Counted from the first letter of the stretch, positions 1,280-45,778 are shown. The stretch: 64,000 nt of DNA from Candidatus Marinacidobacterium sp. (GCA_965250045.1 OZ252286.1:2870317-2934316); one strand, 5' to 3'. A program made the numbers and translations. The notes: generated by a model from the sequence alone, not told the origin.

Positions 1280-3472
1280 GTGAAGTCCCTTCCTTTCCTT
1301 GCAGCCACGCTCGCGCTTCTCGTCGCGCCAGTCGTCGGAGCCCAGGAGGACCCCGGAGAGGCCCTCCGGAGCGCCGCCCGGGAGGGCGACCTGGGGCGGG
1401 TCGAAGAGTTGCTCGCCGGGGGCGCATCCGTTGATGCCCCCAACCGCTACGGAGCGACCGCCCTCTTCTTCGCCGCCGACCGGGGACACCTGGAGGTCGT
1501 CAGGCGCCTCGCCGACGCCGGGGCCGATATTGACCTCTCCGACCGGTTCTACCAGATGACCGCGCTCAGCCGGGCGGCGGGTTCCGGACATCGCGAGGTG
1601 GTGCTCTTTCTCCTGGGAAGGGGCGCGGCGGGTGCGGGGTCGGTCCTCCTCCGGGCGGCGCGCGGGGGTGACGAGGGGTTGCTACGCGCGGTCCTCGAGA
1701 ACGGGAACTTCGACGAGGACGCGCTGTCCGCCGCCCGAGAAGCTGCCGCCTCGGATGATGTGTCGGCGCTGCTCCGGGGGCGCACCGCACGCGCGGTCGC
1801 CGCTCCGGAGCTGACCGAGGAGGCCCGGCGGCGACTCGCCGGCAGCTACTGGAACGAGACCATCGAGCGGGGGGTCCTGGTCACCGCCGAGGATGGAATG
1901 CTTCGGGCGCAGCACTTCGAGCGGGATGCTGATTCCGGGAATGACCGCTTCGCCGCGCCGGCGGTGGTGCTCACCCCACGCGGGGGGCCTCGCTCGTTCG
2001 TGACCGACGAAGGGGGGGATCGCTACGGGTTTCAGGGCCGCGGCGGGATGGTCGAGAACCTGATCGTGGAACGGGGCGGCGAGCCCGTCACCTACCCGCC
2101 GGAGGGGGAGACGGAGGGCCGCGCTGCGGCGAGGGAGACCGCGGAAGCTCCGGTCGAAGCGGACTTGGCCCCCGGGGATCTGGCGCCGATACGGGCGCGC
2201 CCGTGGCCGCAGTTCCGAGGCCCCGGCGGCTCCGGAATCGCGGATGAGCAAGGGGTACCGCTCCGTTGGAACGCCTCCGAGGGCACGGGGATCGCTTGGG
2301 AGGCGCCCCTGCCGGGGCTCGGCATCTCGAGTCCGATCGTGTGGGGCGACCGGGTGTTCGTGGTCGTGGCGGCAAGCCTCACGGAGGACTCGGAGTTCCG
2401 TATCGGCCTTTACGGCGATGTCGCCCCGGTACAGAACGACAGCGAACACCGCTGGGAACTCCGGGCGTACGACGTCTCGACCGGTGAGCCGGTCTGGACC
2501 AGGGAACTCCGGCGAGGCGTGCCCAAAACGCGTCGCCACACGAAGTCCAGCCAGGCGAACGCGACCCCGGTAACCGACGGCGAACGGATCGTGACCCTGA
2601 TCGGCAGCATGGGCGTGTTGATGTGTCACGACCTCGAAGGGAACCTGCTATGGGAGCGAGAAGTGGGCGTCCTGAACAGCGGCTGGTTCTACGACCCCGA
2701 CTACCAGTGGGGGCACGCCTCCTCGCCGGTCATCCACGACGGCGCGGTGATTGTGCTTGCCGACGTTCACGGCGAAGCTTTCCTCGGCGCGTTTGAGCTC
2801 GACACGGGGGAGCCCCGGTGGCGGGCGGCCCGGGACGAGGTCTCCACCTTCTCGACCCCGCTGGTCCACGAGATTTCCGGGGGCGCCGAAATCGTGGTGA
2901 ACGGCACGGTGATCCGCGGGTACGACGCGGCGACCGGCGCCGAGCGCTGGCGCCTCGGTCCCAATTCGGAAATCCCGATCGGCGTCCCGCTGCTTGGAGA
3001 CGGACTCCTGTTCTTACAGGCGGGTTATCCGCCGATCCGGCCCATCTACGCGATCCGCCCCGGCTCGGAAGGGGACCTGAGCCTCACTCCAGGCGAGGAC
3101 TCGAGCGAGGCGATCGCCTGGAGCAAGAACCGGGGTGGGGTCTACATCCCCTCGCCACTCTTCTACCGCGGCGTTCTCTATCTGAACGCCAACAACGGCC
3201 GGCTCTCAGCCTACGACGGCGAGACCGGAGAACGTCTCTACCGGGCCCGGATCGGAGGGGTAGGGGGTTCGTATGCGGCTTCCCCGATCGCCGCGGACGG
3301 CCGGCTCTACTTCACGTCGGAGGAGGGGGAGACGTTCGTGGTCCGCGCTGGGCGCGATTACGAACTCCTCGCGCGGAACAGCGTGGACCGGATCGTGATG
3401 GCCTCTCCGGCAGCGAGCGGCGGCGTGCTGGTCGTCCGCGCGATCGACCGGCTCTACGGGATCGTCCGCTAA
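1280..3472 (+). CDS. Secreted ankyrin-repeat plus PQQ-like beta-propeller (BamB-like) protein
   Basis: GTG start gives signal peptide KSLPFLAATLALLVAPVVGAQE; ankyrin repeats (GATALFFAADRGHLEVVRRLADAGADID); C-terminal half has repeated 'DG.LY' propeller blades. Start choice is uncertain. Confidence 0.6.
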   Translation: MKSLPFLAATLALLVAPVVGAQEDPGEALRSAAREGDLGRVEELLAGGASVDAPNRYGATALFFAADRGHLEVVRRLADAGADIDLSDRFYQMTALSRAAGSGHREVVLFLLGRGAAGAGSVLLRAARGGDEGLLRAVLENGNFDEDALSAAREAAASDDVSALLRGRTARAVAAPELTEEARRRLAGSYWNETIERGVLVTAEDGMLRAQHFERDADSGNDRFAAPAVVLTPRGGPRSFVTDEGGDRYGFQGRGGMVENLIVERGGEPVTYPPEGETEGRAAARETAEAPVEADLAPGDLAPIRARPWPQFRGPGGSGIADEQGVPLRWNASEGTGIAWEAPLPGLGISSPIVWGDRVFVVVAASLTEDSEFRIGLYGDVAPVQNDSEHRWELRAYDVSTGEPVWTRELRRGVPKTRRHTKSSQANATPVTDGERIVTLIGSMGVLMCHDLEGNLLWEREVGVLNSGWFYDPDYQWGHASSPVIHDGAVIVLADVHGEAFLGAFELDTGEPRWRAARDEVSTFSTPLVHEISGGAEIVVNGTVIRGYDAATGAERWRLGPNSEIPIGVPLLGDGLLFLQAGYPPIRPIYAIRPGSEGDLSLTPGEDSSEAIAWSKNRGGVYIPSPLFYRGVLYLNANNGRLSAYDGETGERLYRARIGGVGGSYAASPIAADGRLYFTSEEGETFVVRAGRDYELLARNSVDRIVMASPAASGGVLVVRAIDRLYGIVR

Positions 3473-3593
3473 CAGCCTGTGGTGGAACCCGGGTGAGCGC
3501 CGAGAGCGGGGAGGCGCCCGGCTGACAAGGCGCGTGAGGGAGGAGCCCCCACCGGGAGAACTGGGCCGTCTGGGTTTCACCACAGGCTGCTAA
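3469..3593. repeat. MITE copy a (short deletion variant), TIR CAGCCTGTGGTG / CACCACAGGCTG, flanked by CTAA
   Basis: Inverted termini at 3473-3486 and 3576-3589; internal segments match copies at 35508, 37399 and 45554. The left CTAA overlaps the TAA stop of the upstream gene. Confidence 0.75.
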
Positions 3594-3657
3594 CGGTCGT
3601 GGATGCGGCGCGCCGCTTCTCCGCCTTCTACAATTGAGCCTTTCCGGAGGTACCGCC

Positions 3658-5025: not shown

Positions 5026-5026
5026 A

Positions 5027-5485: not shown

Positions 5486-7445
5486 CGGATCCGCCGGACG
5501 GCTTCGGGGGCCCGCCGGTGGCGCCCACCACCGCGCGCCGCCTGCCCTTGGACGCGAAGACGAGCAGCGCCGCCAGGGCCGCGAGTCCGAGGAAGTTCGC
5601 GAGGGCGAACAGTTCGTCAGGGGCCGGCGGCCACAGGAGGAGCGCCGCCGCCCCCAGGGCCAGGCTCCGGAATCCAGCGCTCAAAGGACCGAACAGCCAG
5701 CCCACGATGCCCACGGAGAGGAGCAGGACCACCGCGCCCCCAAGCAGGAAAGCGACGATCGCTCCGGGTACGCCCCGTCCGCCGTCCAGAATCAGCAACA
5801 GTTCGGGACGGAAGACGAAGAAATAGGGCAGGGCAAACCCAGCCAGCGCGAAGCGGAAGGCGGTGAGCGCGACGGGCAGGATCGGGGTGCCTGCAATTCC
5901 GGCTGTCGTGTACGCCGCGAGGGCCACCGGGGGAGTCACCATGGACATCATTCCGAAATAGAAGATGAAGAAATGGACCGACAGCGGCGGAACCCCGAGC
6001 TGGCCAATCACCGGGCCGATCAGGATCGCCATCAGGAGGTAACAGACGGCCGAGGGCAGTCCCATCCCCAAGACTATGGACCCAACCATAATGAGGAGGA
6101 GGGCGGGGAGCAGGCCCTCACCGGCAACGGAGAGCACCGTCGCTGGAAAGCGGGTGCCGAGCCCGGTCAGGGTGACCATCCCGAGGATGATTCCAACCGA
6201 GCCGGCGGCCGCCACCAGGGGCGCCGCACCCGCCGCGATGCGGCCCAGCCCTTCCCAGAGCTTCTTGAGATCCGGACGAGTAGCGGGGTGCCAAACGGAA
6301 GTCGCCACGACGATTGCGAGGGCGATGCTGACCGCCCGGAACACCGTCCGGCCCGCCACCAGTGCGACGATGAGGGCTATGAGACCGACACAGAAGACGA
6401 TTCCCGCCTGAATCGGGACGGAGCCGCTTTCTTCCCGCGGCGGCGCTTCGCCATGAGCCCGGCCCAGATAGCGGCGTGCATAAAGATGGACCATGGCGAT
6501 CAGCGCCGCGTAATAGAGGAGCGCCGGCAGGATGGCCGCCCGCACGACCTGCAGGTAACTGACCGGAGGATCCACGAGCTCCAGCATCATGTAGGCGCCG
6601 GCGCCCATTACCGGCGGGACCAGCGCCGCACCGGAACTGGCCGCCGCGGTGATCGCGGCGGCGGCCCGCGCGCTGAACCCGGTGCTCTGCATCAATGGGA
6701 TGGTCAGCGTCCCGGTGGTGGCGGCGCCCGCCACCGCGCTCCCGGAAAGCGAACCCATCATGGCGTTCGCGACCACAGAAACCTTGGCCGCTCCGCCCAC
6801 GGTCCCGCGAAACACCCGGCGCGCCGAAGTGGTGATGAAGCGGATGGCTCCCGTCTGCTGCAGCGCCGCGCCAAAAACGACGAACAGGAACACATAGGCG
6901 AACATCACCTTCATCGCGATCCCGAAGACGCCTTGGCTCTGCAAGAAGCCCTGGGATGCGATGCGGGCGAGGGAATAGCCGCGATGGGGGAAGAGCAATT
7001 CTGGGAGATAGGGGCCAAGGACTGCGTGGAGCAGAAAAAGGCCGGTGAGAATGGGCAGGGCCGGACCGATCACCCGCCAGGTGGCGGCAAGCACGCCGGC
7101 GAGGCCCACAAGGCCCACCGCGATGTCGAGCGAACTCTCGCCGCCGGCACGATCTCCGAGCGTCGTGGGGCCGAAGCCGCTCCAGTAGAGAACGAAGGCG
7201 CACCCGGCAACCGCCGCTACCAGGCCACAAACGTCAACCCCGCGTCGCCACCAGGGATCATCCGCTTTCATTCGAAGGAGAAAGCAGAGCGGCAACCCGA
7301 ACAGCGCGAACGCGGCCAACTGAGCCTGAGGGGTCAGCACCGGCCGATTCACCTCGACCAGCACAAAGGCGGTGAGCAGTAGCGTGAGGATCCCGATCAC
7401 GGCGCTGCGAACGCTCGCCGACGCCCGTGGACCCGATTCAGTCAC
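5454..7445 (-). CDS. TRAP transporter fused 4TM/12TM permease (TAXI-type)
   Basis: 663-aa polytopic membrane protein with the glycine-rich DctM-like core (GAGAYMMLELV..., FIFYFGMMSMVTPPVALAAY) and an N-terminal small-permease-like region. It sits directly upstream of the TAXI receptor. Confidence 0.75.
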   Translation of the reverse strand: MTESGPRASASVRSAVIGILTLLLTAFVLVEVNRPVLTPQAQLAAFALFGLPLCFLLRMKADDPWWRRGVDVCGLVAAVAGCAFVLYWSGFGPTTLGDRAGGESSLDIAVGLVGLAGVLAATWRVIGPALPILTGLFLLHAVLGPYLPELLFPHRGYSLARIASQGFLQSQGVFGIAMKVMFAYVFLFVVFGAALQQTGAIRFITTSARRVFRGTVGGAAKVSVVANAMMGSLSGSAVAGAATTGTLTIPLMQSTGFSARAAAAITAAASSGAALVPPVMGAGAYMMLELVDPPVSYLQVVRAAILPALLYYAALIAMVHLYARRYLGRAHGEAPPREESGSVPIQAGIVFCVGLIALIVALVAGRTVFRAVSIALAIVVATSVWHPATRPDLKKLWEGLGRIAAGAAPLVAAAGSVGIILGMVTLTGLGTRFPATVLSVAGEGLLPALLLIMVGSIVLGMGLPSAVCYLLMAILIGPVIGQLGVPPLSVHFFIFYFGMMSMVTPPVALAAYTTAGIAGTPILPVALTAFRFALAGFALPYFFVFRPELLLILDGGRGVPGAIVAFLLGGAVVLLLSVGIVGWLFGPLSAGFRSLALGAAALLLWPPAPDELFALANFLGLAALAALLVFASKGRRRAVVGATGGPPKPSGGSVRFRALGGAP

Positions 7446-7562
7446 CAGGAGCGCCGGCCAGTCTCCCGGTGGGGGCCTTCAGACCGGCATCGCCGCCCGC
7501 AGGGCGGCGAGATGCGAAGCCGGACTCCTTGAATATCCATCCAGGCCCGAAAGAGCGGCGGG

Positions 7563-8558: not shown

Positions 8559-8568
8559 CGGGTACGAG

Positions 8569-9165: not shown

Positions 9166-9279
9166 GGTCCAAGCATACCCACACGGCTTCGGCGCGCGCC
9201 ACCCTCGCGGGCAACCCCCGAAGCGCGTCCGCCGGAGCACGCGCTCCCGAGCGGGGTTGAACGGTGTCACAATTCCCGG

Positions 9280-13107: not shown

Positions 13108-13200
13108 CCTGCAGGCGGTGCACAAAGTCACGCCGCCCAGTTCTCCCGGTGGAGTCCCGAGCGGAGCGGGGTCGTGAGCGCTCCGGAACCCGGTACCACG
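13108..13200. repeat. Truncated MITE copy (one terminus only)
   Basis: 'gcaggcggtgcacaaagtcacgccgcccagttctcccggtgg' matches the MITE terminus and internal 'ccaccgggagaactgg' module. Confidence 0.5.
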
Positions 13201-17042: not shown

Positions 17043-17196
17043 GCCGAATGTTGCCTCGTGCCCGCCGCTTTTGGCCGGGACTTCGTCTCGGGGGACGGCG
17101 GGTGGGACGGCCACTTGTCTGGCGCCGCCCGCTCAGCGCGTCGAAAAGGGAGTAACCGGTGAAGGTTAGCATCAGGGAAACGATGCAGACCTTCCG

Positions 17197-17663
17197 ATGT
17201 TCCGTGGCTCTGGCCGATGTTCCGTAGCTCTGGCGGTTCCGCTCGACGCGGTCTTCCGGTTCTTTTCGGATGCCGGAAACCTGGAAGGCCTCACCCCGCC
17301 CTGGCTCCGTTTCCGGGTCGTCGAAGGAGACGTCCCGATGTTCCGCGGCCGGCGGATCGACTATCGGCTGCGGCTTCGCGGTCTGCCGCTCCGGTGGCAC
17401 AGCGAAATCACTGCGTGGGATCCCCGCATCGCTTTGTTGACGAGCAGGTAGTTGGCCCCTACCGGCGCTGGATTCATGAACACCGGTTCGAGGCCCGCGA
17501 GCGGCCGGGCAGGGGCCCGGTGGTGATCGCGAGCGATGAAGTGCAATACCAGGCCCCGGGTGGACGGCTCGTGAACCGGTTTCTGGTTGCGCCTGACCTG
17601 AAACGCATCTTCGCCTACCGCACGAAAAGGCTGAAGGAGCGGTTCGCAACGCCGGACGACTGA
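17197..17663 (+). pseudogene. SRPBCC-family (polyketide cyclase/dehydrase-like) gene with -1 frameshift in a C4 run near 17425
   Basis: Two overlapping ORFs in different frames together give an SRPBCC protein (...LRWHSEITAWDP | PHRFVDEQVVGPYRRWIHEHRFE...). Adding one C to 'gatccccgc' restores the frame. Confidence 0.5.
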
Positions 17664-17699
17664 CGGCTCTCGTGGAGTCGGCGGTCGGGAGGCCTGCCC

Positions 17700-17992
17700 G
17701 GACACCGCGGACGCGCTTATCGGCCAGGGTGCCGTGAGTGCCTTGAGAATTGGTGCTGTTCGCCGCCTGCGGCGGCGAGTGCCGGTCTGAATACCAGGTC
17801 TGAAGACCGGCGTTCCCAAGCCACGCCAGCGGCTTCGGATAGGCACCGCACCCTTATCGGACGTCGCAAAGGGCCGGCGCGCTTCCGGATTGAGGCTCAA
17901 TCCTTATCGAAAGTCGCCTTCGCGACAAACCGGGGCGCGCCTATCGGATGCCGCGAAGCGGCTTCGGATAGGCACCGCACCCTTATCGGACG
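17700..17992. repeat. Tandem array of ~125-bp repeat units (left part, interrupted by IS insertion)
   Basis: Units of form 'ggcttcggataggcaccgcacccttatcggacgtcgcRaaggg...atccttatcgaaagtcgccttcgcgac...tatcggatgccgcg', with YTTATCGGAYG sub-repeats every ~30 bp. The array continues at 32111. Confidence 0.7.
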
Positions 17993-19380: not shown

Positions 19381-19822
19381 GATTTCTTGAGCGCGAAGCC
19401 ATCAGCGGCTCGGCGGCCGTTCGGTCCGTTGTCCTTCCCGAATACGATCTGCCGAGCCACCCGGGGCGGCGGCTTGAACACGGGCTCCCAGTCCCGCACT
19501 TCGAGCTGTTCGATCCGCCCGTAATTCACCTCCTGCATCAGCTCGACGAGGCGTCGCCTGGCAGGAGTCAGGGCCGCCTTGGTCACATCCGTCATTTCCG
19601 GACCTCCTTTCGCGCTTTGGCGCATCAACGAAATCGCCCCCTCGGAGGCAGGTCCGACGAGGGTTCCTTCCAGGGAGCGTTGCCCGGACTTACCGGACGG
19701 AGCCGTCGGGGGAAGAGCTCTCGTCGGAGAGCTATGGTCGAAAGTGGGTGACGGCGAGAGAAGGGGGTGGCGTATCGTGGGAGTAACCAACCTTCCACAT
19801 CTCCAAAGAGGAGTGATACGCC

Positions 19823-26900: not shown

Positions 26901-29900
26901 GTTCACCGTCACCGTCGCGCCGACTTCAGCCGTCGTCGGCGTCACTTTCACACTGTCTGTAGAGGCCTCCACGGCGACGGCGTAGCTCGTGGTCGTCGCG
27001 GCGAAGTCCGGTGTCAGCGTCCCCGGCGAGACGGTCAGGTTCAACAGGTTCGCGTTGGAGCCGCTCTCAAGGATCGCCACGCTCACCGGTACGTCGATCG
27101 TGACGATCCCGTCCGTGACGGCGTAGCGAAACATATCGGTGCCGGTGAAGCCGGCCTTGGGCGTATAGGTGACGGTGGTCCCGTTGGTGTTGATCTCGGC
27201 GGTCCCGTTGCTCGGGCCCGTTCCGGGTAAGCCCACCTCGACCACGCGGAGGATCGTCCCCGCGTCCACGTCCGAGTCGTTTTCCAACACGCCAATGACG
27301 ATTGGAATGTCTTGGCTGGTCTCGGCGGTGTCAGCCTTCGCCTCCGGCGGGTCGTTCACGGCATTCACGTTAATGGTGATGGTGTATGACGCCGCGCTGT
27401 CGAGCTCGCCGTCATTGACCTTGAAGTCGAACGTCGCGAAAGCGGCGCCGTTGGCATTGGCTGGCGGGGTGTACCTGAACTCGTCGGTGGCGGAGAACGT
27501 CACTTGCGGAGCCGTGTTGAGGTCGGTAATGTCCGTGCCATTGAACGACAGCGTCCCCCGGTCCGTCCCGGGCAGCGCGGTGATCTTCACATGGTCCAAC
27601 GTGGCGCCGTCGACGTCCGAGAAGCCAAAGTCCGCCTCACCAAACGTGTACGTCGTGTCCTCGTCCATGGACACCGTCTTGTCGGAACCCGTGAGGGAGT
27701 CGTCCACGGCATTCACGTTAATGGTGATGGTGTATGCCAACTCGCTGTCGGCCGCGCCGTCATTGACCTTGAAGTCGAACGTCGCGAAAGCGGCGCCGTT
27801 GGCATTGGCTGACGGGGTGTATGTGAGATTGCCGGCATCGAGCCCGGTCTTTGCCACCTGCCTGGGCGTCCTGACATCGGTAATGGGCGTGCCGCCAACC
27901 GACAGCGTTCCCCGGTTCTGCTCGGGCAGTGCAGTGATCTTCAAGCGGTTCAGCGTGGCGCCGGATTTGACGCTCGTGAAGCCGAAGTCCGCCACCTTAA
28001 AGGTGTACGTCGTGTCCTCGTCCGTGGACACTGTGTTGTGGGAAGCCGTGGGGGCGTCGTTCACCGGCGTGGCGGTCGTGGTGGATGCAGGGCCGCGACC
28101 GGAAGCGTTCTCGGCACGCACCGCAAACGTGTACTGGGTGCCGTTGGTCAGTCCGATCACGGTGGTGGTGGTAGTGCTCGCACCGCTGTCGCTGATGTCG
28201 GCGAAGGTCGTGCCACCGTCCTTGCTGACCTGGTACTTGGTGATCGTGTTGTTGCCCGGATCGTCCCAGGACAGAGTGACTTGGCCGTTACTCGGCGTGG
28301 CCGTGAGGTTCGTCGGGGGGGCCGGCGAGACCACCATCGGCGTGGCATCCACGGCGGCTGGCCAACTGCTGTCCGCGGAGTCCTGTGTCGCCAGCACCGT
28401 GAAGGTGTATTCGGTGCCGTTGTTCAACGAGTCAATGGCAGCGATCGTCTTCGACCCCGAACCGGCTGGCACGTCCACCGAATTGCCGTCCGAGATGTCT
28501 ACCCGATAATCGGTGATCCCGGGGTTCCTGTCCCACTCCAGGAAGACCCGGCTGCTGTCCGGCGTCGCCACCAAATTGGTCGGCGCGGGCCACAGTGGCG
28601 TGGCAGTCGCGGTGGATGCCGCGCCGTAACCCCACCAGTTCACCCCGCGCACCGCCAGCGTGTACTGGGTGCCGTTGGTCAGACCGGTCACGGTGGTGGT
28701 GGTAGTGCTCTTGCTGCTGCCGCTGATGTCGGTGAAGGTCGTGCCACCGTCCATGCTGATCTGGTACTTGTAGATCGTGTCGTTGTCCGGATCGCTCCAG
28801 GACAGAGTGGTCTGGCGGTCGTCACCCTCGGTGGCCGTAAGGTTCTCCGGGGCCGGCATGGATATCGGTCTGGCCGTCACGGTGGGTGATTCCTTACCGT
28901 TCAGCGCCCGCACACTGAAGGCGTACAGGGTGCCGTTGGTCAGTGGATAAACGGTGCGAGTCGTCGTCGAACCCGATCCGGGAGGAAGGAATATGGTGTT
29001 ACGCCGGACACCGTCTTCATAGACATAGATATAATAATCGTCGATGTCGTCGTGGCCGTTGTTCCACTCCACGGTAACCCGACCCTGGCCCGCCGTCGCC
29101 ACCAAACCGGTCGGCGCGGGCCACAGTGGCGTGGCGGTCACGGTGGATTCCGCGCCGTTACCGCCAGCGTTCACCGCCCGCACCGCAAACGTGTACTGGG
29201 TGCCGTTGGTCAGACCGGTCACGGTGTAGCTGGTCGTGGTGTCATCGCTGCCGCTGATGACGCTGAAGGAGCCACCGTCGGTGCTGTACTCGTACTCGTC
29301 GATTGTGCTGTCGCCCGGATCGTCCCAGGTAAGACCGATCTGTCTGTCACCCACCTCGGCCTCGAGATTCGTCGGGGCGGTCGGGGCCAGTGCCGGCGTG
29401 GCGGTCACGGTGGATTCCGCGCCGTTACCGCCAGCGTTCACCGCCCGCACCGCAAACGTGTACTGGGTGCCGTTGGTCAGGCCGGTCACGGTGTAGCTGG
29501 TCGTGGTGTCACCGCTGTTGGGGATGTCGGCCCAGCTGCTGTAGGTCCCCGTGTCGGTTTTCCGGCGATACTGGTATTTCGTGATGGTGTTGTTGGCCGG
29601 ATTGGCCCAGGACAGAGTGACCTGGCCGTCATCCGGCGTGGCCGAGAGGTTCATTGGGGCGGCCGGGGCGCGAATTTGCCCATTGACCCTGATTTGTAAC
29701 ACACTGAAATTAATCGAACTCCACCCGGTTGAGCCCGGGGTGCGCGCGTGGCGTTCATTCCTGATGCTCCACCCGATGGCCGAAGCGGAATCTTGGAGGT
29801 TAGATGTCGTATTGTCCCATTGGGGGTAACTAGCACTGCCGTTAGGCGCGAAAACCATTTGCACGAAGTATTGGGTGTTTGCACTCAGACTGGCACCGGC

Positions 29901-30290
29901 AGGGGCGGTGAACGTTCGGAGTCCCGCCGCCACGTTGGCCGGGTTGTTCAAGGTATATAATGTATTGCCCCCCGGATCGCCCGATCCGTCGTCACCCCTC
30001 ACCGTTACCGTCAGGGTTCCGCTACCCGAAGCCACGCCTACGCCCAATTCGATACTTGTCAAGGAGTAGCCCAGTGTATTCTGGCCCGTGGTGAACCCCT
30101 GAGCATGGTCACTGGGATTTACGGGTGTCTGACCGGCGTTAGATTGGCCCGTATTGCTCACGAGCACGGTCTGGGCGTGCGCTGGCGCCGGAAAGCCAAG
30201 CATCAGCATCGCGGCGGCGAGGAATAAGCCGATGATTCTCAGCCGCGGGTCTTTCCTCCGCATCACGCCCTGAATATCCGAGCGGTCCAA
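23925..30290 (-). CDS. Giant (2121 aa) autotransporter-like surface adhesin: signal peptide, multiple FN3, cadherin-like/Ig-like and Calx-beta domains, C-terminal outer-membrane beta-barrel
   Basis: N-terminal signal RIIGLFLAAAMLMLGFPAPAHA; repeated FN3 units (...TKYQY...TSYTVTGLTNGTQYTFAVRAVNAGGNG...); VNDAPTA/VNDPPEA cadherin-like units; Calx-beta-like blocks. The C-terminal ~600 aa is Gly/aromatic-rich with alternating pattern and ends ...VRMSIPF (terminal Phe). Near-identical intragenic DNA repeats. Confidence 0.7.
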   Translation of the reverse strand: MDRSDIQGVMRRKDPRLRIIGLFLAAAMLMLGFPAPAHAQTVLVSNTGQSNAGQTPVNPSDHAQGFTTGQNTLGYSLTSIELGVGVASGSGTLTVTVRGDDGSGDPGGNTLYTLNNPANVAAGLRTFTAPAGASLSANTQYFVQMVFAPNGSASYPQWDNTTSNLQDSASAIGWSIRNERHARTPGSTGWSSINFSVLQIRVNGQIRAPAAPMNLSATPDDGQVTLSWANPANNTITKYQYRRKTDTGTYSSWADIPNSGDTTTSYTVTGLTNGTQYTFAVRAVNAGGNGAESTVTATPALAPTAPTNLEAEVGDRQIGLTWDDPGDSTIDEYEYSTDGGSFSVISGSDDTTTSYTVTGLTNGTQYTFAVRAVNAGGNGAESTVTATPLWPAPTGLVATAGQGRVTVEWNNGHDDIDDYYIYVYEDGVRRNTIFLPPGSGSTTTRTVYPLTNGTLYAFSVRALNGKESPTVTARPISMPAPENLTATEGDDRQTTLSWSDPDNDTIYKYQISMDGGTTFTDISGSSKSTTTTTVTGLTNGTQYTLAVRGVNWWGYGAASTATATPLWPAPTNLVATPDSSRVFLEWDRNPGITDYRVDISDGNSVDVPAGSGSKTIAAIDSLNNGTEYTFTVLATQDSADSSWPAAVDATPMVVSPAPPTNLTATPSNGQVTLSWDDPGNNTITKYQVSKDGGTTFADISDSGASTTTTTVIGLTNGTQYTFAVRAENASGRGPASTTTATPVNDAPTASHNTVSTDEDTTYTFKVADFGFTSVKSGATLNRLKITALPEQNRGTLSVGGTPITDVRTPRQVAKTGLDAGNLTYTPSANANGAAFATFDFKVNDGAADSELAYTITINVNAVDDSLTGSDKTVSMDEDTTYTFGEADFGFSDVDGATLDHVKITALPGTDRGTLSFNGTDITDLNTAPQVTFSATDEFRYTPPANANGAAFATFDFKVNDGELDSAASYTITINVNAVNDPPEAKADTAETSQDIPIVIGVLENDSDVDAGTILRVVEVGLPGTGPSNGTAEINTNGTTVTYTPKAGFTGTDMFRYAVTDGIVTIDVPVSVAILESGSNANLLNLTVSPGTLTPDFAATTTSYAVAVEASTDSVKVTPTTAEVGATVTVNGSVVASRSASDAIALALGAATSIPVQVTAADGTPTQTYTIKVHRAAARDRAGPTVAITSEAAAPPKVEITSAAAGPVGGAFEVTITFSEAVTGFEQSDIQVTNGTVADFTAVSSSEYRATIEPTVVGQPVVVEVAEDVAEDAASNGNEAAAPFVIATGIVVSYAAESYTATEGGESVTVTVKLSKAGDEELAIPVRVTRPETTEVGDYQVEGLKDWDAEAGTGTLTFGAGATEQTFTIAANHDGDGDDETVELGFGELPEIVLAGEPAVAIVTLEDKGLVELVVSFGQAAYEVQEGEVAEIKVTVSPAADRRLEIPLVVALEGGTTPEDFQEVPSTLVFEEGEREGTISVEVLTDEVSDPGEGIVLSLGVLPEAVSGGELSETRVSFRQRRTAEQFTSSLEAMLAVMGRSMGASAQTAIEGRFERHRQWSRLGSSGGAVSTLQPGRANRAAALGAGESERVGSEGSGGRGAEGSLVEHARGADQAGAARTSAATGSDWNSEHRETGTPVSWLRNVVLGSFENLARAAQSGSAMSSGYGAAPGGRVSGQDRHFGSGFGDARLGPGSGDFSGMRDQELIPGAGTRDAGSAGYSAMVGQALNLSGASFEMSLGESEGETSWVPVMWAQGDLQRFNGDLTRLGMDYGGGLEAAHVGLDLYANDRVLAGLSFMRSWGDLEYTDDGVAGLLESRMNTVHPYVYWQPSARLSVWGIGGLGQGQVEVEEPGRTHDFGAEFRMFAGGVRAVLGGRGSNEWGVRADAFTTQLGTDALADIAAVRGEAQRGRLMLEWVHDAALSAGRSLSLTAEAGGRFDRGDADRGAGMETGFRLGYLDAHSGLDAALYGRVLVVHESDYRDWGAGLQVSWDPGEKQRGLRVSVNSSRGQDGGGRTTLWNNANMVTHPVGMDAAGMGSQSRMESEVAYGGLKALGLPCLLTPYSRLRWAGQGRELAWGTACSLPPRSQLALPLRLEMEATRRKNRTGPTDLAVMVRMSIPF

Positions 30291-30722
30291 TGCGTGACGA
30301 CCCCTACAATGAGCCGTCCGGTCAGGACTTTTCTTCGCAGGTTTGGCGCGTCAACAAAGTTGGGGACCCTCCTTGTTCTGTTTCAGCCATTGTACAGCGT
30401 TGTTGCATGGATCATCCCGAAGGATGCCTTATCATCGTGTTTTTCAACACAGGGGATAACCTTGGATGCCACATAAGTTCAACGTAGCGCGACGGCACAA
30501 GTTTGCTAAGGCGCAGTACCGGGTGTCAAGGGCGGACCAAAACTAGACCAGAGTGGCGGAGGGGAATTCGCTACCACCAACTCCACGAAGCGAAGCTCTT
30601 GCGCCTGATCGTCCTTCAGGATGCCCAAGAACCGCTCGAGCTGTCTGGCGTACGTAATCTGGCTCTCGTTCTCGTACTCGCAGGTCTTGCCGAAATATCG
30701 GGAGGCGAGGCGGTTGGCGATC

Positions 30723-32110
30723 GAGCTATGGTCGAAAGTGGGTGACGTCGGGAGAAAGGGGTGGCGTATCGTGGGAGTAACCAACCTTCCACATCTCCAA
30801 GGAGGAGTGATACGCCATGACGGAGAGTACCGTTGTTTTCCTTCCCTCAGCAGAGGGAGTTGAGGATCCGCTGACGGAGGTTCTGCGAGCGGGAGCCCGC
30901 GAGCTGGTGAGGCACGCGGTGGAGGCGGAGGTGGCGGCGCTGCTGGTGGCGTATGAGGATCACCGGACCGGAGGCGGCCGTCGGCGCGTGGTGCGTCACG
31001 GGCATGGCCCGGAGCGGGCGATCCTGACGGGGATCGGTCCGGTACCGGTGCGTCGGCCGAAGGTTCGGGACCGGGGTGGCGCGGGAGAGGATCGTGTCCG
31101 GTTCTCTTCGCGGATCCTGCCGCGATTCGCGCGGCGGACGCGCTCGCTGGACGCGGCGCTGCCGACGCTGTATCTGCTGGGAGTATCGAGCGGGGACTTT
31201 GGGGAAGCGCTGTCGGACCTGTTGGGTTGTGGGGCCTCGGGGCTGTCGCCGGGCGTGATCGGCCGTTTGAAGGCGGAGTGGGAGTCGGAACACGAGCGCT
31301 GGCGTCTGCGGGATCTGTCGGACCGGCGGTATGTCTACGTGTGGGCGGACGGGATCTACCTTCAGGGCCGGCTGGAAGACGAAAAGCAGTGCGTTCTGGT
31401 GCTGATCGGGGCGACGCCGGAGGGCAAAAAGGAACTGCTGGGGTTCCAGACGGGGTTCCGGGAGAGCGCCCAGAGTTGGCGGGAACTGCTGGAGGATCTC
31501 AAGGGGCGTGGCCTCCAGATCCCCCCGGAGCTGGCGATCGGGGACGGAGCTCTCGGCTTCTGGAAGGCGCTGGACGAGGTCTTCCCCAAGACCCGCCGCC
31601 AGCGCTGCTGGGTCCACAAGACCGCGAACATACTGAACGCGTTGCCCAAGTCCCGGCACCGGAACGCCAAGCAGGACCTGCATCAGATCTGGATGGCGGA
31701 GGGGCGCGCCGAGGCGGAGCAGGCGATGGACACCTTCGAGGCCAAATACCAGGCCAAGTATGGGAAGGCGGTCACCTGCCTGACCAAGGACCGCGACGCC
31801 CTGCTGGCCTTCTACGACTTCCCGGCCGAGCATTGGCAGCACATCCGGACCACCAACCCCATCGAGAGCGTCTTCGCTACCGTCCGGCATCGGACCGTTC
31901 GTAGCAAGGGATGCCTCTCTCACAAGACCGCACTGGCGATGGTCTTCAAACTGGTCATCGCTGCCAGCAAGACCTGGCGCCGCCTCAACGGCTACGAGCA
32001 GTTGCCCCGGCTCATCCAGGGCGTCAAATTTACCGACGGCATTCAAGCCGACGAAACCGAAACCCGCGCCGCCACCTGATCATGTCGTCACCCACTTTCG
32101 ACCATAGCTC
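30723..32110 (+). mobile_element. IS256-family IS, copy 3 (near-identical to copy 1)
   Basis: Same TIRs; transposase differs from copy 1 at only ~2 residues. Confidence 0.85.
30817..32079 (+). CDS. IS256-family transposase (copy 3)
   Basis: 420 aa, ~99.5% identical to 18087-19349. Confidence 0.85.
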   Translation: MTESTVVFLPSAEGVEDPLTEVLRAGARELVRHAVEAEVAALLVAYEDHRTGGGRRRVVRHGHGPERAILTGIGPVPVRRPKVRDRGGAGEDRVRFSSRILPRFARRTRSLDAALPTLYLLGVSSGDFGEALSDLLGCGASGLSPGVIGRLKAEWESEHERWRLRDLSDRRYVYVWADGIYLQGRLEDEKQCVLVLIGATPEGKKELLGFQTGFRESAQSWRELLEDLKGRGLQIPPELAIGDGALGFWKALDEVFPKTRRQRCWVHKTANILNALPKSRHRNAKQDLHQIWMAEGRAEAEQAMDTFEAKYQAKYGKAVTCLTKDRDALLAFYDFPAEHWQHIRTTNPIESVFATVRHRTVRSKGCLSHKTALAMVFKLVIAASKTWRRLNGYEQLPRLIQGVKFTDGIQADETETRAAT

Positions 32111-32335
32111 TATCGGACGTCGCGAAGGGCCGGCGCGGTTCCAGATTGAGGCTCAATCCTTATCGAAAGTCGCCTTCGCGACGAATCCGGGCGCGCTTAT
32201 CGGATGCCGCGCCAGCGGCTTCGGATAAGCACCGCCTCCTTATCGGACGTCGCGAAGGGGCCTCCGGGGTCCAAAACGTGGCTGCATCCTTATCGAAAGT
32301 CGCCTTCGCGACTTCCGATAAGGATGCTTATGTTA
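32111..32335. repeat. Tandem ~125-bp repeat array (right part)
   Basis: About two further units continuing the array interrupted at 17992. Confidence 0.7.
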
Positions 32336-32379
32336 AATAACGAGGTGCAGAGCCAATCGCCAGCCCAGAACGGCCGCCA

Positions 32380-33282
32380 CTAACCCTCCTCCCGAAACGC
32401 CGTCACGTCGCGATGGAAGACGAAAAGCGAATCCATGTTCCCCGACGGCGATTCGAAGTTGTAGGTTCGCCCGCGGAGCACTTTCACCCCCAGGTTGTTG
32501 TTCAGATAGTCCAGCTCGAAGCGCTCCACCTGTGCGAACGGCAATTGGAACGCATCCTTGTGATCCGTCTGGTAGTCGAACCCCTCGGGCGTCGCAACCA
32601 GCGTCCCTTCGCAGGACCCGAACCGATGTTTGTGTACCGCGGCCACCTTGACGTCCAGTGACGCCACCATGTCGCCGAAGTCCACTCGCACCGGCACCGC
32701 TTTCCTTTCGACCGCCACCCGACGGGAAACGACCTCGTACCCCTCGATGGACACCGTCAGGTTGTACTCCCCGGGCTGAAGATCCGCGATCGTGACCGGG
32801 GTGTTTCCCTTGAAGTTTCGGTCCACAAAGACGTTCGCTCCGGCGATGTCACTCTCCACGACGATGGACCCGAGCATTTCAGTGAGGTTCGCCGCCAGCG
32901 AGCGGATCCGGCCTCCGCGGATGGTGATGGTTGTCTCCAGGGAGTGATATCCCTCTTTTTCCACCCGAACCGGGTACTCGCCGACGCCCAATTCCTCCCA
33001 GGCCCCCGGAACCGTGCCAAGCAAACGGCCGTCCAGGAGAACACTGGCGCCCTCGGTGCCCTCTATCTGCAGGGTGCCGGTGGTGGGCGGCGCCGGGGGT
33101 GGAGGCGGTGGCGCTCTCTCTGCTTCGGGCGCCTTGGGCGGCGGCGCCTCTTCGGCCGGTGCGGTTTCTTCCGCTGGGGCCGCAGACTCCTCGCCTCCAC
33201 CACATCCTGCGAGGGAAGCGAGGCTGGCCAGGAGAGCGAGTGATCGAAAGAAGATGCGCGTCGACTCAGAGCGACGAATCAT
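32380..33282 (-). CDS. PEGA-domain lipoprotein
   Basis: Signal/lipobox LALLASLASLAGCGG; Pro/Ala-rich linker; PEGA-like repeats (LQIEGTEGASVLLDGRLLGTVPG..., ANVFVDRNFKGNTPVTIADLQPGEYNLTV). Confidence 0.6.
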   Translation of the reverse strand: MIRRSESTRIFFRSLALLASLASLAGCGGGEESAAPAEETAPAEEAPPPKAPEAERAPPPPPPAPPTTGTLQIEGTEGASVLLDGRLLGTVPGAWEELGVGEYPVRVEKEGYHSLETTITIRGGRIRSLAANLTEMLGSIVVESDIAGANVFVDRNFKGNTPVTIADLQPGEYNLTVSIEGYEVVSRRVAVERKAVPVRVDFGDMVASLDVKVAAVHKHRFGSCEGTLVATPEGFDYQTDHKDAFQLPFAQVERFELDYLNNNLGVKVLRGRTYNFESPSGNMDSLFVFHRDVTAFREEG

Positions 33283-34266: not shown

Positions 34267-34808
34267 CGCGACTCTACGAAGATCTCGGAATGGAGCATCT
34301 TCACCGGGGCCCCGGGCTTCGCCGTCGGCAGGGACAGTTCCAGGGTGGTGTTCGTAGGAGCACTGCAAGCGTTGTCCGTGCAGAGCTGGTAGCGGACCAG
34401 CACTTCAGCGTCCGCCGAACGTCCACTCTTGAGGATGGAAGTAACGGGAATGCGGATCGCCACCGTCCCCTCATAGAGATCGTATTCGCCAAGACCGGAA
34501 AGGTCCCGCCGGATCGGGTCGGGATAGAACGGGTGTCCGCTTTCGAAAGCTCCACCCTCGACCAGTTCCACGACCGTGGCGGTGGGGAATGCCTCCTCGG
34601 GTCCGTAGAGGTGATACCCCTCTTCAAGTTCGGCGACCACTGCGACTTCGAAGCTGTCGCCGGGACGCACCGGGGACTGGGAGGCCACCAATTCGAATTT
34701 CGCCGCGTTCTCCCAGTCGGGAATCATCGGCGGTTGGGCGGCGAGGGTGGCAGCAAGACCGCCGGACACGGTCAGGGCGAGACCGGACAGCAGGAGAGGG
34801 TGTTTCAT
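34263..34808 (-). CDS. Periplasmic DsbD N-terminal-domain-like thiol-disulfide relay protein
   Basis: Signal peptide MKHPLLLSGLALTVSGGLAATLAAQ; nDsbD-like beta-sandwich with the 'YQLCTDNAC' Cys pair. Confidence 0.5.
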   Translation of the reverse strand: MKHPLLLSGLALTVSGGLAATLAAQPPMIPDWENAAKFELVASQSPVRPGDSFEVAVVAELEEGYHLYGPEEAFPTATVVELVEGGAFESGHPFYPDPIRRDLSGLGEYDLYEGTVAIRIPVTSILKSGRSADAEVLVRYQLCTDNACSAPTNTTLELSLPTAKPGAPVKMLHSEIFVESR

Positions 34809-34839
34809 GGGTCGAAACTCCTTGGGATTGGACTCGCGG

Positions 34840-35421
34840 TCAGGATCCGGCGAGACGGGAGATCTCGGACAGGATCTCCTTGGGGGAGGTTCGGTCGCGG
34901 TAGTTCACCCACACGTTGACGAACCGAACTACGCCGTCACCATCCACGATGATGGTTGCCGGATGGGGAATTCCTTCCCGTTCCGTGCCGTTGTGGTCCG
35001 GATTGGGGATTCCATATTCGCTGATGACCGGACCTCCGTCCACCATGATGGGGAACGTCCAGGCATTCTTCGAGAGCCACATCAGGGTGTCTCCCACCCC
35101 GTATTTGGAAATGCCGAGCACCGTGGCGCTCTGCGCCTCGAACTGATCCAGGGACTCTTGCAACTCGCCGAGTTGCGCAATGCAGAATGGTCACCAACCG
35201 CCACTGCGGAAGAACTCAAGAACGACCGGCCCTCGCTTCACGAGTTCGGAAAGTCGGTAGGAGGCGCCGTGGGCGTCCTTGAGTTCGAAATCGGGCGCCC
35301 GATCCCCGACCTTCACCGTCGGGATGTCGGTGTCCTGTGCGGATCCGCTGGAAGGGGCGAGGCCCGTGGCCAAGCCGACGACCAGCAATGCAGAGACGGG
35401 AAGTCGAGACATGCGGGCCAT
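34840..35421 (-). CDS. Secreted thioredoxin-fold peroxiredoxin-like (AhpC/TSA-redoxin) protein with in-frame TGA 35191-35193 in the CxxC motif (W-U-P-F-C); predicted selenoprotein
   Basis: ORFs 35191-35421 and 34840-35163 share a frame; read through the TGA gives ...GDRAPDFELKDAHGASYRLSELVKRGPVVLEFFRSGGW-U-PFCIAQLGELQ...PATIIVDGDGVVRF... N-terminal signal peptide. A perfect 7-bp stem hairpin lies 14 nt downstream of the UGA. Confidence 0.6.
35160..35176 (-). promoter_or_regulatory. Candidate bacterial SECIS hairpin downstream of UGA 35191-35193
   Basis: mRNA GCAACUC-GGC-GAGUUGC: perfect 7-bp stem, G-containing apical loop, beginning 14 nt 3' of the UGA. Confidence 0.4.
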
Positions 35422-35507
35422 TTTAGCCCGGCTGTTTCGATGCCAAAGAGACGGCCAAGGCCGAAAGGAACGATTCGTCTCCCACGGGTTTCTTGGTCGA
35501 TCACCGG

Positions 35508-35694
35508 CTAACAGCCTGTGGTGAAACCCACGCGGCGTTCGAGCGGCGATGCATCCCGCCTGAACCGCGCCGCTTTGCGGCGCTCTGCGTTGCGTTTCGG
35601 TCGAAATACACTCGGTATTCCTCCCTCACGCGCCTTGTCAGCCGGGCGCCTCGCCGCTCTCGGCGCTCACCTGGGTTCCACCACAGGCTGCTAA
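35508..35694. repeat. MITE copy b (187 bp) with TIRs and CTAA flanks
   Basis: CTAA-CAGCCTGTGGTG...CACCACAGGCTG-CTAA; the internal sequence is highly similar to copy d. Lies in the promoter region of the Prx-like selenoprotein operon. Confidence 0.8.
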
Positions 35695-37398: not shown

Positions 37399-37648
37399 CT
37401 AGCAGCCGGTGGACAAAGTGGAGTGGCCGCCGAGGCTGGCCAATCTCCCGGTGGGGGCGAGGCGCCCGGCTGACCCAATTCTCCCGGTGGGGGCGGCGCG
37501 ATTTGGGAGGAGCCCCCAGCGAGAGAACTGGCCCGGGTGTATTCCGACCGAATCGGAACAGAGAGCGTAGCGGTTCAGCCTGGATGCATCGCCAGCCGAG
37601 CCCCCACGGGGAGAACCGGGCCAGGTGACTTTGTTCACAGGCTGCTTG
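37399..37648. repeat. MITE copy c (250 bp, inverted orientation, degenerate TIRs)
   Basis: The reverse complement aligns to copy d across its length. Sits immediately upstream of the parA start. Confidence 0.7.
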
Positions 37649-38153: not shown

Positions 38154-38174
38154 GGTCAGCTCCTTGTTGGTTCT

Positions 38175-41492: not shown

Positions 41493-41614
41493 CGTGGCCA
41501 GTACGAGGTTCGAGTGCGCTACAACGATGTGCGGGCGGCTTCGGCCCTGCCGCCCCCCGGGAAGCGCATCCCGGGGGGTCCACACCCCGAAATGAACGAG
41601 AACCCCAACGGGTA

Positions 41615-42508: not shown

Positions 42509-42512
42509 CGGC

Positions 42513-43004: not shown

Positions 43005-43061
43005 GCCGGTGCCGGATCCACCCCGGAGTCCATCGGCTTCGCAATCGCCGATGGCAACCTC

Positions 43062-43126
43062 CCGATCAAGTCGGACCCGATCGAGTCGGACCCGATCAAG
43101 TCGGACCCGATCAAGTCCGACCGAGG
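43062..43126 (+). repeat. 15-bp tandem repeat x4 (GATCAAGTCGGACCC-like)
   Basis: gatcaagtcggacccgatcgagtcggacccgatcaagtcggacccgatcaagtccgacc, between tolR and the probable tolA start. Confidence 0.7.
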
Positions 43127-43146
43127 ATACGTTTCGGCGCAATCTG

Positions 43147-43995: not shown

Positions 43996-45518
43996 GACAT
44001 CTTCCCCTGCCCCGCTTCGGTCCAGCACTGGCCCTCCTCGGCGCCGCGCTGGCCACTGGAGCCGCGGCCGGTTTGGCGCCCAAGTCCGTCGTCCACTCCG
44101 GAGCCACGCGACATCCGGCGTCAGTCGAAGTTGCGAAGCTTCTCCCGGAGTCTGGCGCAACTGACTCCCGCGTGGCCAGTGCGCCCGCGGCACTCCCTCA
44201 AGAAGCCGGCGATTGGTACCTCGACATCACCCGTCCCGGTGCTCCGGTCCGGATGGCCGTTCCCGATTTCGAGGTGCTTCCGAGCGACTCGGCGCCCGAG
44301 GCCGGTTCCGGGGAGTCTCCCGGCGACGACGGGGACCCGCTGGGCCAAGAGGCGACGGAGGCTGCGTCCGTGGCCAGTGCCGTGTTGTGGGATGACATCG
44401 AGTACGCCGGGGTGTACCGGATGCTTCCCAAGCGCTTTTATCGGATCGCGGAAGCCGGGTCCGCCGAAGGAGTCCTGGACTATTACCAGTGGGAGTCCAT
44501 CGGAGCCGACATCCTGATCGATGCGAAGCTCTGGATCGAGGGAGACTTGCTCCTCGCCGAAGTGCGCATGCACGCCGTACGGGCGCAGGAAAACGTCTTC
44601 GGACGGCGGTACACGGCTGCGCGCGGGGCCGCCCGGACGCTGGCCCACCGGATCGCCGACGACATCCTGCAGCATGCCGGGAACTACCAGGGAGTCGCCC
44701 GAACTCGTATCGCTTTCTCCACCAGCCGATCGCAGCCGCGCAGCAAAGAGATCTACCTGATGGACTACGACGGACACGGACAGCGCCCGGTGACCGCCAA
44801 CGGTTCACTGAACATCACCCCGAGCTGGTCGCCGGATGGACGAGCGCTCAGTTATATCTCCTACCGCGAAGGCGCGCCTTCCCTCTATCTCGCCTTTCTC
44901 TATCAGGGCCGCGGGGAAAAACTGGTCGGAGAGTTCCAATCATTCACTCCGGCCTGGTCTCCGGATGGGCAGTGGATCGCGTTCACTTCGAATCGTGACG
45001 GCCAGTCCGAGATCTACCTGGCAGCGGTGGACGGCAGCGAGTTGCGACGGATCACCGACAACCGCGCCATTGATGTCGCACCCACCTGGTCCCCGAACGG
45101 GCGCACGATCGCCTTTACCTCCGACCGCACCGGAGCCCCGCAGATCTACACCATGGACCGGGACGGATTGAACCTGAGGCGGATTTCCTTTGAAGGCTCG
45201 TACAATGATTCGCCGGCGTGGTCTCCCTCGCGGCAGCACAGTGAGATCGCCTATGCCTCGCGGATCGAACGCGGCCCCTTCGACATCGTAGTACACGACT
45301 TCGAGACCCGGCAGACCCGGCAACTCACAACGGGACGCGGCAGCAACGAGAGTCCCTCCTGGGCTCCGAACGGCCTGCATATTGCGTTCACATCCAACCG
45401 GGCCGGCAACGACCAGGTGTTCACCATGCACCGGGACGGCTCCAATCTGAAGCAGCTCACCCGAGAAGGGAGCAATACCACCCCCCGTTGGGGTAACCCC
45501 CCTGGGGGTCCGCAATGA
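43992..45518 (+). CDS. tolB: Tol-Pal system beta-propeller protein TolB
   Basis: TolB N-domain plus repeated WD40-like 'SPSWSPDG...' blades; ATGA overlap with tolA. Confidence 0.85.
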   Translation: MRHLPLPRFGPALALLGAALATGAAAGLAPKSVVHSGATRHPASVEVAKLLPESGATDSRVASAPAALPQEAGDWYLDITRPGAPVRMAVPDFEVLPSDSAPEAGSGESPGDDGDPLGQEATEAASVASAVLWDDIEYAGVYRMLPKRFYRIAEAGSAEGVLDYYQWESIGADILIDAKLWIEGDLLLAEVRMHAVRAQENVFGRRYTAARGAARTLAHRIADDILQHAGNYQGVARTRIAFSTSRSQPRSKEIYLMDYDGHGQRPVTANGSLNITPSWSPDGRALSYISYREGAPSLYLAFLYQGRGEKLVGEFQSFTPAWSPDGQWIAFTSNRDGQSEIYLAAVDGSELRRITDNRAIDVAPTWSPNGRTIAFTSDRTGAPQIYTMDRDGLNLRRISFEGSYNDSPAWSPSRQHSEIAYASRIERGPFDIVVHDFETRQTRQLTTGRGSNESPSWAPNGLHIAFTSNRAGNDQVFTMHRDGSNLKQLTREGSNTTPRWGNPPGGPQ

Positions 45519-45553
45519 GGTCGCGTTGATGAGACTCCATTCGGCCTGCCGGG

Positions 45554-45778
45554 CTACAGCAGCCTGTGCACAAAGTCACGCGGCGTTCGGCTGGCGATGC
45601 ATCCCGGCTGAACCGCGCCTCTGCGAGGCGCTCATCGTTGCGCTTCGGTCGAAATACACTCGGTATTTCTCCCTCGCGCGCCTTGTCAGCCGGGTCCCCA
45701 CCGGGAGAACTGGCCCCACCGGGAGAACTGGGCCTCGTCAGCCTCGGCGCTCACGCCACTTTGTCCACAGGCTGCTAA
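45554..45778. repeat. MITE copy d (225 bp; long TIRs CAGCCTGTGSACAAAGT...)
   Basis: TIR cagcctgtgcacaaagtcacgcggcg / cgtcagcctcggcgctcacgccactttgtccacaggctg, flanked by CTAC / CTAA. Overlaps the 5' end of the pal ORF. Confidence 0.8.

Follow-up and report, generated by a model that had tools for sequence, protein, structure and literature searches.

MITEs (miniature inverted-repeat transposable elements) that have only their terminal inverted repeats in common with an autonomous insertion sequence (IS) are an established general class of bacterial repeat. Within the IS5 family, members of the IS5 group duplicate a 4-bp YTAR target, and IS5 ends typically start with GG or GA. TA duplication and hairpins of about 100-200 bp at gene borders are features of IS630-linked MITEs, among them the Correia elements of Neisseria, and the Rickettsia palindromic elements (RPEs) insert in frame into protein-coding genes. 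Here we describe a repeat family found in 64,000 nucleotides of Candidatus Marinacidobacterium sp. (GCA_965250045.1 OZ252286.1:2870317-2934316; "the window" hereafter means the whole of this stretch). The repeats are real, non-coding MITEs, and we put at roughly 85% the probability that the family was moved into YTAR tetramers, with a 4-bp duplication, by an IS1182/IS5-type transposase encoded elsewhere.

Like other bacterial MITEs, the elements are small and non-coding, carry the same ends as a full-length element, duplicate their target, reach a high copy number with polymorphic insertions and are palindromic. Unlike them, their interior is unrelated to that of the full-length element, at least five unrelated interiors are carried on the same ends across phyla, and their length varies in 18-nt steps by way of an internal module. 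With the Correia elements and other IS630-linked MITEs they share a hairpin at gene borders and a TA-centered target, but their duplication is 4 bp and their candidate partner is of the IS1182/IS5 type. In the mechanism that we propose, the IS1182/IS5-type DDE transposase of a 1.5-kb insertion sequence located elsewhere would recognize 18-20-bp ends, CAGCC(T/C)GTGGTG(A/G)AACC, and would move the element into a YTAR tetramer, duplicating its 4 bp. The element itself would have no coding function, being a long imperfect palindrome with a predicted three-way junction (-65 to -134 kcal/mol), and its insertions would be found where genes end, in intergenic spacers of very short length and, now and then, within a gene and in frame.

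Copies, target site and mobility

Four full copies, here called c1 to c4, and two decayed fragments were found in the window, all belonging to one repeat family with the termini CAGCCTGTG.../...CACAGGCTG:

3469-3593, minus strand: c1, body 3473-3589 (117 bp), short form with one 18-nt module
35508-35694, plus strand: c2, body 35512-35690 (179 bp), canonical form
37399-37648, minus strand (inverted): c3, body 37403-37644 (242 bp), type-B ends and four 18-nt modules
45554-45778, plus strand: c4, body 45560-45774 (215 bp), type-B ends and two 18-nt modules in tandem
about 13108-13160, plus strand: truncated old copy with one 18-nt module; its left end, CAGGCGGTGCACAAAGTCACG, is of a degenerate type B, right end absent
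about 7419-7480, plus strand: decayed fragment with a single 18-nt module (7458-7476); its end, GCCCGTGGAC, is degenerate

The initial annotation of this DNA had listed the four full copies and the truncated one, all of which are present where it placed them, and had described the flanks as CTAA with degenerate variants in some copies, a description that agrees with our reading of c1-c4; the fragment at 7419-7480 was not in its list. Both c1 and c2 are flanked by CTAA/CTAA (at 3469-3472 and 3590-3593 for c1), c3 by CTAG/CTTG, and c4 by a degenerate CTACAG on the left and CTAA on the right. The 9-mer CAGCCTGTG occurs exactly nine times in the window and seven of the nine are element ends, while the left end of c3, CAGCCGGTG, has one mismatch to it. 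The inverted ends measure 18-21 nt and fall into two subtypes, GTGRAACCC (c1, c2) and VACAAAGTS (c3, c4 and the 13108 fragment), both ends of any single copy being of the same subtype, and the first 10 end pairs are invariant among 20 copies. Pairwise BLAST connects all window copies (c2 with c4, 87% over 135 nt, E 4e-37; c3 positions 3-56 with 7423-7476, 73%), and a profile built from 20 non-window copies recovers c2, c4, c3 and the c1 arm with E values from 2e-58, for c2, to 4e-15, the c1 arm at 3473-3544 corresponding to profile positions 108-179 on the minus strand. Element bodies, 117-251 bp long, have no coding capacity of their own, and no Pfam match was found for the open reading frames (ORFs) that run through them.

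The family extends well beyond the window. Species-representative genomes were scanned with the 18-nt end, and at least 95 tiles matched, mostly from Vicinamibacteria (Acidobacteriota), including "Candidatus Marinacidobacterium" and sponge-derived bins; loci labeled L followed by a number are stretches from other genomes or metagenomes, outside the window. In the matched tiles, 70 paired ends gave element sizes of 179 (the commonest), 197, 215, 233 and 251 bp, that is, 18-nt steps, and on the tiles among the matches listed the element profile gave 158 matches, 103 of them full length. No match to the profile was obtained in 15 tiles from other phyla or otherwise odd, some of which bear the same end on a different short interior, and viral contigs gave 2 matches. 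The same ends also enclose unrelated interiors in Myxococcota and Deltaproteobacteria bins and in other metagenomes, in forms of 76, 90, 158 and 160 bp. Copies from other species-level genomes reach 96-100% identity to parts of the window copies, and ParB protein divergence among the same lineages is 2-15%. A full-text literature search for the end sequence and for MITEs of Acidobacteria or sponges found nothing relevant, and the family is apparently undescribed, a new family of a well-known kind of element. We also noted a nested sub-family in which one element lies inside another (L002 5343-5611, L089 6683-6924, L050 6431-6626), at the host position ggcTGAAccg with flanks CAAA/TTCA, which seems to have been amplified as a composite.

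Orthologous loci, retrieved via ParB and BamB-like homologs, provided filled and empty versions of the insertion sites, with the empty-site tetramers CTAA (c2), (G/T)TAG (c1), CTAG (c3) and TTAA (c4). The c1 site is empty in L223-L225, where a single (G/T)TAG forms the stop codon of the ankyrin/PQQ gene and the window reads CTAA[c1]CTAA. Copy c2 is not found in L096-L099; the empty site in L097 and L098 is gcggCTAAccacg, and the filled site in the window is ccggCTAA[c2]CTAAccacg. In L096, whose ParB is 98% identical to that of the window, c2 is absent; another copy, of 179 bp, has inserted at a distance of 20 bp, where the other sequences read A(T/C)AA, and its right flank is TTAA. Copy c3 is shared by the window and L096 and is absent in L097-L099, the nuclease-parA spacer of L097 and L098 measuring 11 nt and holding one CTAG. 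Copy c4 is absent in L096, L097 and L099, in which the gap between tolB and pal is 10 nt. The empty c4 site of L097 contains a single TTAA and reads ccTTTAAcagccc, and L098 carries an independent 215-bp copy with type-A ends in the same TTAA site as c4. Further filled/empty pairs are L070/L045 and L006/L082. The absence of c1-c4 at exact single-tetramer sites in close relatives indicates, by comparison of orthologous sequences, that the copies are recent, site-exact insertions. The truncated copy at 13108 is also kept in L096, around position 19435.

Two empty sites are not clean. At about 1100-1130, L096 reads gggctCCAGTAGccc where the window, at 45540-45790, has gggCTACAG[c4]CTAAcagccc, and L027 reads cttCTGttga at 1968-1972 where L013, at 5832-6028, has ctta[element]ttga, CTG being the last three bases of the element. 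These unclean sites may be excision footprints.

The duplication is 4 bp at YTAR. Flanks of other copies read TTAA, CTAG, TTAG or CTAA, and after copies sharing flanks had been collapsed (n = 55), an identical YTAR was found on both sides in 32 of the 55 copies, including the non-palindromic CTAA and TTAG. Clean CTAA...CTAA repeats surround c1, c2, the full-length element in L176 and a relative on plasmid pLB1 (the last two described below), and TTAG...TTAG surrounds two other short copies. A 4-bp YTAR duplication had been proposed from the outset, on the understanding that CTAA might prove to be part of the element; flanks that vary between copies and empty sites holding one tetramer show that it is not, and the proposal is borne out by the non-palindromic direct repeats, the empty-site tetramers and the finding that the flank bases nearest the element are not passed on with it.

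The last point is important, as some features of the flanks could also be read to mean that only the central TA is duplicated, as in IS630/Tc1-mariner transposition and Stowaway-like MITEs, with true ends R-CAGCC...GGCTG-Y and a target preference accounting for the outer Y/R. Of the 62 copies that have a YTAR at each end, 55 have complementary element-proximal bases, and the outer bases show no correlation. Moreover, 22 of 23 unequal flank pairs differ by a single base in such a way that the proximal bases still pair (p = 6e-6), and the young L096 insertion at A(T/C)AA carries TTAA on its right, both as expected if TA alone were duplicated. Proximal bases belonging to the element should, however, be inherited with it. 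Nearest-neighbor copies share the proximal base in 21/55 and 20/55 cases, against 27 expected by chance, whereas 14 of 24 internal polymorphic sites are inherited with the element at p <= 0.001, and a TA-only duplication is therefore rejected. The clean non-palindromic 4-bp duplications listed above, and the fact that the element with matching ends encodes a transposase of the IS1182/IS5 and not of the IS630 type, likewise speak against it, so that this model is largely refuted and we regard it as very improbable. Recombination between copies was also considered as the origin of the unequal flanks, and was rejected since 22 of the 23 pairs are inner-complementary and double differences are rare.

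Partner insertion sequences and their transposase

A metagenome scan for the ends of the element yielded three full-length elements of 1495-1524 bp:

L176, 8009-9532: full-length element, flanks CTAA/CTAA, gene frameshifted
L197, 6-1500: full-length element, same ends, YTAR
L215, 359-1862: full-length element, same ends, YTAR

These elements share 18-20-bp inverted ends with the short copies, and the similarity ends after about 20 nt. Each encodes one protein of 474-477 amino acids in which DUF772 and DDE_Tnp_1 score above the Pfam cut-offs, DDE_Tnp_1_6 doing so in the C-terminal fragment of L176 only. The initial annotation had predicted mobilization by an IS5/IS1182-type transposase absent from the window and had suggested a search for an insertion sequence with matching inverted repeats. 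The metagenomic elements fit this prediction in their ends, their YTAR flanks and their ranking of matches (IS1182, then IS5), and the window itself holds no transposase with matching ends, only IS256/Mutator-type elements. We infer that a transposase of the L176/L197/L215 type, or a close relative, mobilizes the Vicinamibacteria copies and is present in their genomes as well.

Metagenomes contain over 8000 homologs of the transposase, mostly on contigs of about 1.5-2 kb, and its nearest annotated relatives, with about 50% amino acid identity over about 90% of the length, are from Sphingobium, Rhizorhabdus and pLB1 plasmids. The pLB1 relative (AB244976.1, 39.6-41.0 kb, 1457 bp) is annotated as "IS5 family transposase" and has the ends CAGGCCGTTGACGAAGTCGG / CAGCGCGGTGACGAAGTCGG with a CTAA/CTAA duplication. 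It resembles the present elements in its roughly 50% identical transposase, in ends similar to type B and in its CTAA/CTAA flanks, and differs in belonging to plasmids of Alphaproteobacteria and in several positions of its ends. Like IS5, the present family has a YTAR target and a 4-bp duplication, and its partner transposase carries DUF772 and DDE_Tnp_1. Unlike IS5, the transposase is about 475 amino acids long and scores higher with the IS1182 model than with any IS5 model, although all of these scores lie below the cut-offs, and the ends start with CAGCC and not with GG or GA.

Other candidates for the partner were tried and rejected. Matched ends 600-3000 bp apart and generic inverted repeats in the at least 95 genome tiles delimited only composites of short copies; a transposase-like ORF at L033 2998-4581 is unrelated; clustering of multi-copy proteins in the tiles returned the IS256 type only; and the transposases of the window, all IS256/Mutator, have ends (GAGCTATGGTCGAAAGTGGGTGAC) that do not match.

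Several observations weigh against mobilization into YTAR by an IS1182/IS5-type transposase. The best NCBIfam match of the transposase, IS1182, reaches 161-164 bits, below the NF033551 cut-off of 270, and the next, IS5_4 (NF033581), reaches 92-94 bits, below its cut-off of 140. Assigned by its best matches, the transposase is provisionally of the IS1182/IS5 type, its scores falling under both curated cut-offs. No copy of it was found in about 0.8 Mb of Vicinamibacteria sequence and the window. At the target site, the empty site of L082, CTAG, is not the tetramer predicted from its filled partner L006 (TTAG/CTAG), and the left flank of c4 and the "empty" c4 site of L096 are irregular. Finally, flanks are unequal in 23 of the 55 copies, and the inequality is non-random, which a plain 4-bp duplication does not predict without an added process.

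The modular build of the element also brings to mind repetitive extragenic palindromes and bacterial interspersed mosaic elements (REP/BIME), which are spread by REP-associated tyrosine transposases (RAYT) of the IS200/IS605-like kind. Mosaic organization, a variable number of short units, tandem arrays sharing flanks and intergenic, hairpin-forming copies would all suit such an origin. The present copies, however, are 117-250 bp long and not 20-40 bp, possess terminal inverted repeats of 18-20 bp, a target duplication and exact empty sites, and lack a GTAG or CGTC tag at their ends, and their full-length partners hold a DDE transposase between the same ends. The target duplication and the full-length DDE element refute a REP/BIME origin, which we give next to no weight.

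Other mobile DNA was seen in the window. A segment of about 15 kb (17100-32400) is absent from the closest relative L096, in which the PEGA-domain and CMD genes lie about 1 kb apart, and is bounded by two IS256/Mutator copies in direct orientation that are 99.7% identical. The IS copies of the segment are at 17993-19380, 19729-22888 and 30723-32110, the copy at 19729-22888 being interrupted by another IS256-type element at 20862-22626. An ORF on the minus strand (23925-30290) encodes a 2121-amino-acid protein made of repeats of about 265 nt. The segment looks like an IS-flanked island or composite transposon.

Hairpin structure and the 18-nt module

All four full copies are predicted to fold into very stable hairpins, at -72 / -65 kcal/mol for c1 (z -4.5 / -5.3), -122 kcal/mol for c2 (z -10.6), -134 kcal/mol for c3 (z -5.9) and -115 kcal/mol for c4 (z -7.1), and the 13108 fragment folds no better than shuffled sequence (z +0.6). 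The consensus of 20 canonical copies is a long stem with two internal hairpins. Across these copies pairing extends to 97% of cells, with changes on both sides in 15 of 59 pairs; this covariation is reached in 0 of 500 shuffles, and slid controls collapse. Three conserved U-G pairs and one A-U to G-U change give pairing on one strand only.

Such a pattern might indicate that the element, besides being mobile, is kept as a functional structured RNA, for example an mRNA-stabilizing or processing hairpin at gene ends, and that the compensation reflects selection on the RNA. The stability of the predicted hairpins, the 15 compensatory pairs, the strand-specific U-G and G-U pairs and the high sequence identity between species agree with this, as does a possible sense excess downstream of genes, 17:4 and 15:7 with crude gene calls. 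However, the orientation tests depend on weak gene calls (third-codon-position G+C of only about 0.75), a better-principled test gave 5 against 2, too few cases, and the window has 2 sense and 2 antisense copies relative to transcription. Rfam 15 returned no family match at gathering score over the whole window, and no terminator-like U-tract was found. Simple scans in and next to the copies likewise detected no sigma-70-like promoter or intrinsic terminator above chance, so that the suggestion in the initial annotation that copies contribute promoters or terminators found no backing there. Moreover, target-derived flank bases show one-base compensation of the same kind, which points to a DNA-level correction that mimics covariation, and we consider a functional RNA unlikely.

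A tentative account, which we hold to be possible though short of probable, is that hairpin-templated correction of the DNA (quasi-palindrome template switching), rather than selection on an RNA, maintains the complementarity of the arms and even of the first base derived from the target on either side. The unequal but inner-complementary flanks are evidence, not proof, for such a correction. A mutational origin of the stem covariation is at least as likely as selection on structure, because the target-derived flank bases behave in parallel with the stem. If this account is true, non-palindromic duplications such as CTAA and TTAG would be systematically "palindromized" after insertion, the compensatory changes of the stem would come from mutation and not from selection on RNA, and the 18-nt unit CCCCACCGGGAGAACTGG would spread by a related copying mechanism. 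The flank pattern constitutes a natural experiment, suggesting that palindromic elements can gain "compensatory" changes without structural selection, and calls for caution in covariation analysis of repeat-derived hairpins.

The size steps of the family come from this 18-nt unit, which occupies at least five positions in the element, in either orientation and in some cases as tandem copies. Of 240 occurrences, 23 lie outside the element, in other small repeats. Occurrences outside full copies are at 7458-7476 and 13137-13153 in the window and at L004 2295, L024 2995, L079 7891, L007 1900, L012 3127 and L095 3218; at least two contexts recur, ...GGTCTGAAGGCC-unit-CCGGCGCTCC... and ...GGCTTGGAGCC-unit-GCCGGCCTCCGGCCGGCA..., and these outside contexts may be further small repeat families. 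The module context of the 7419-7480 fragment also recurs elsewhere as a separate small repeat. At 48449-48621 the window has two 53-nt direct repeats, 120 nt apart (TGCAGGCACGGGAACGCCGACCTCCGGTCGGCAC...), which resemble the "ccggaggtcggcgttccc" context adjoining the 18-nt unit in other genomes, and at 49350-49493 about seven 19-nt units (ATATCCRATGTCCCGCTGA) follow one another in tandem, forming an array that is unusually A+T-rich for the genome.

Insertion sites and neighboring genes

In about 0.8 Mb of Vicinamibacteria loci, YTAR occurs 0.98 times per kb where 6.8 are expected, an approximately 7-fold under-representation, and a sizeable share of the YTAR tetramers present are flanks of this element itself. 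In about half of the copies the TAA or TAG of one flank closes a long ORF. The proposed landing of insertions at gene ends and in short spacers would follow from these properties, because YTAR is scarce in these genomes, with their 66% G+C, and frequently falls on TAA/TAG stops. An enrichment at stop codons beyond the supply of YTAR was looked for and not observed: the share per side is about 30%, and that of YTAR sites in general 25%.

The copies of the window illustrate these positions. Directly after a stop codon lies c1, the left CTAA of which includes the TAA stop of the ankyrin/PQQ-propeller gene at 1085-3472. Copy c2 is located between the parB stop codon and an AhpC-like operon, both on the minus strand. 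An ORF on the plus strand, 34747-35511, appears to end at the c2 flank; it is probably spurious, because in orthologous loci the genes are called on the opposite strand. The gene that comes first after c2 (window about 34900-35450, minus strand; L096 11223-11804) is called in all relatives as two AhpC-TSA fragments of 76 and 93 amino acids, a split that fits an in-frame TGA (selenocysteine), as had been assumed in the initial annotation. Copy c3 interrupts a spacer of 11 nt that separates the stop codon of a bifunctional-nuclease-domain gene from the parA start codon, both on the minus strand.

With c4, the insertion point is within pal, after codon 11, and the reading frame remains open throughout the copy. 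At 215 + 4 = 219 nt, the insertion adds 73 residues to the frame ahead of the signal-peptide core, and no in-frame ATG, GTG or TTG is found between the c4 interior and the Pal hydrophobic core. The independent copy in L098 is likewise in frame within pal (pal locus with insertion: window 45526-46416, L098 502-1389). The earlier view that all copies lie at gene 5' ends or between genes is thus roughly right as a general description, but wrong in placing c4 in front of pal.

In this respect c4 and the L098 copy, both within pal with the frame kept open, resemble the RPEs. Unlike the RPEs, most copies of the present family are intergenic, they have a clear duplication and a transposase partner, and the open frames of the consensus are within chance. 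In 41 of 55 copies, element length and duplication add up to a multiple of 3, and in about 90% of copies two forward frames contain no stop codon. For the consensus, this two-frame openness lies within chance, and selection for open reading frames was therefore rejected. Elsewhere in the window, a TonB-like gene carries four tandem 15-nt units (CCCGATCRAGTCGGA) at 43061-43120; the length of the gene varies among relatives, at 267 as opposed to 316-318 amino acids in L096, L097 and L099.

Copies of the family thus sit inside operons (tolB-pal, nuclease-parA) and even in the signal-peptide region of pal. They break metagenome assemblies, many contigs stopping at the inverted repeat, and create spurious long ORFs. 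On the reading preferred here, that of mobilization into YTAR by a transposase encoded elsewhere, one widespread family of IS1182/IS5-type transposases would be tied to several unrelated miniature elements across phyla. The insertions document a mobile element that was active until recently in the marine and sponge-associated Vicinamibacteria, an uncultured lineage about which little is known.

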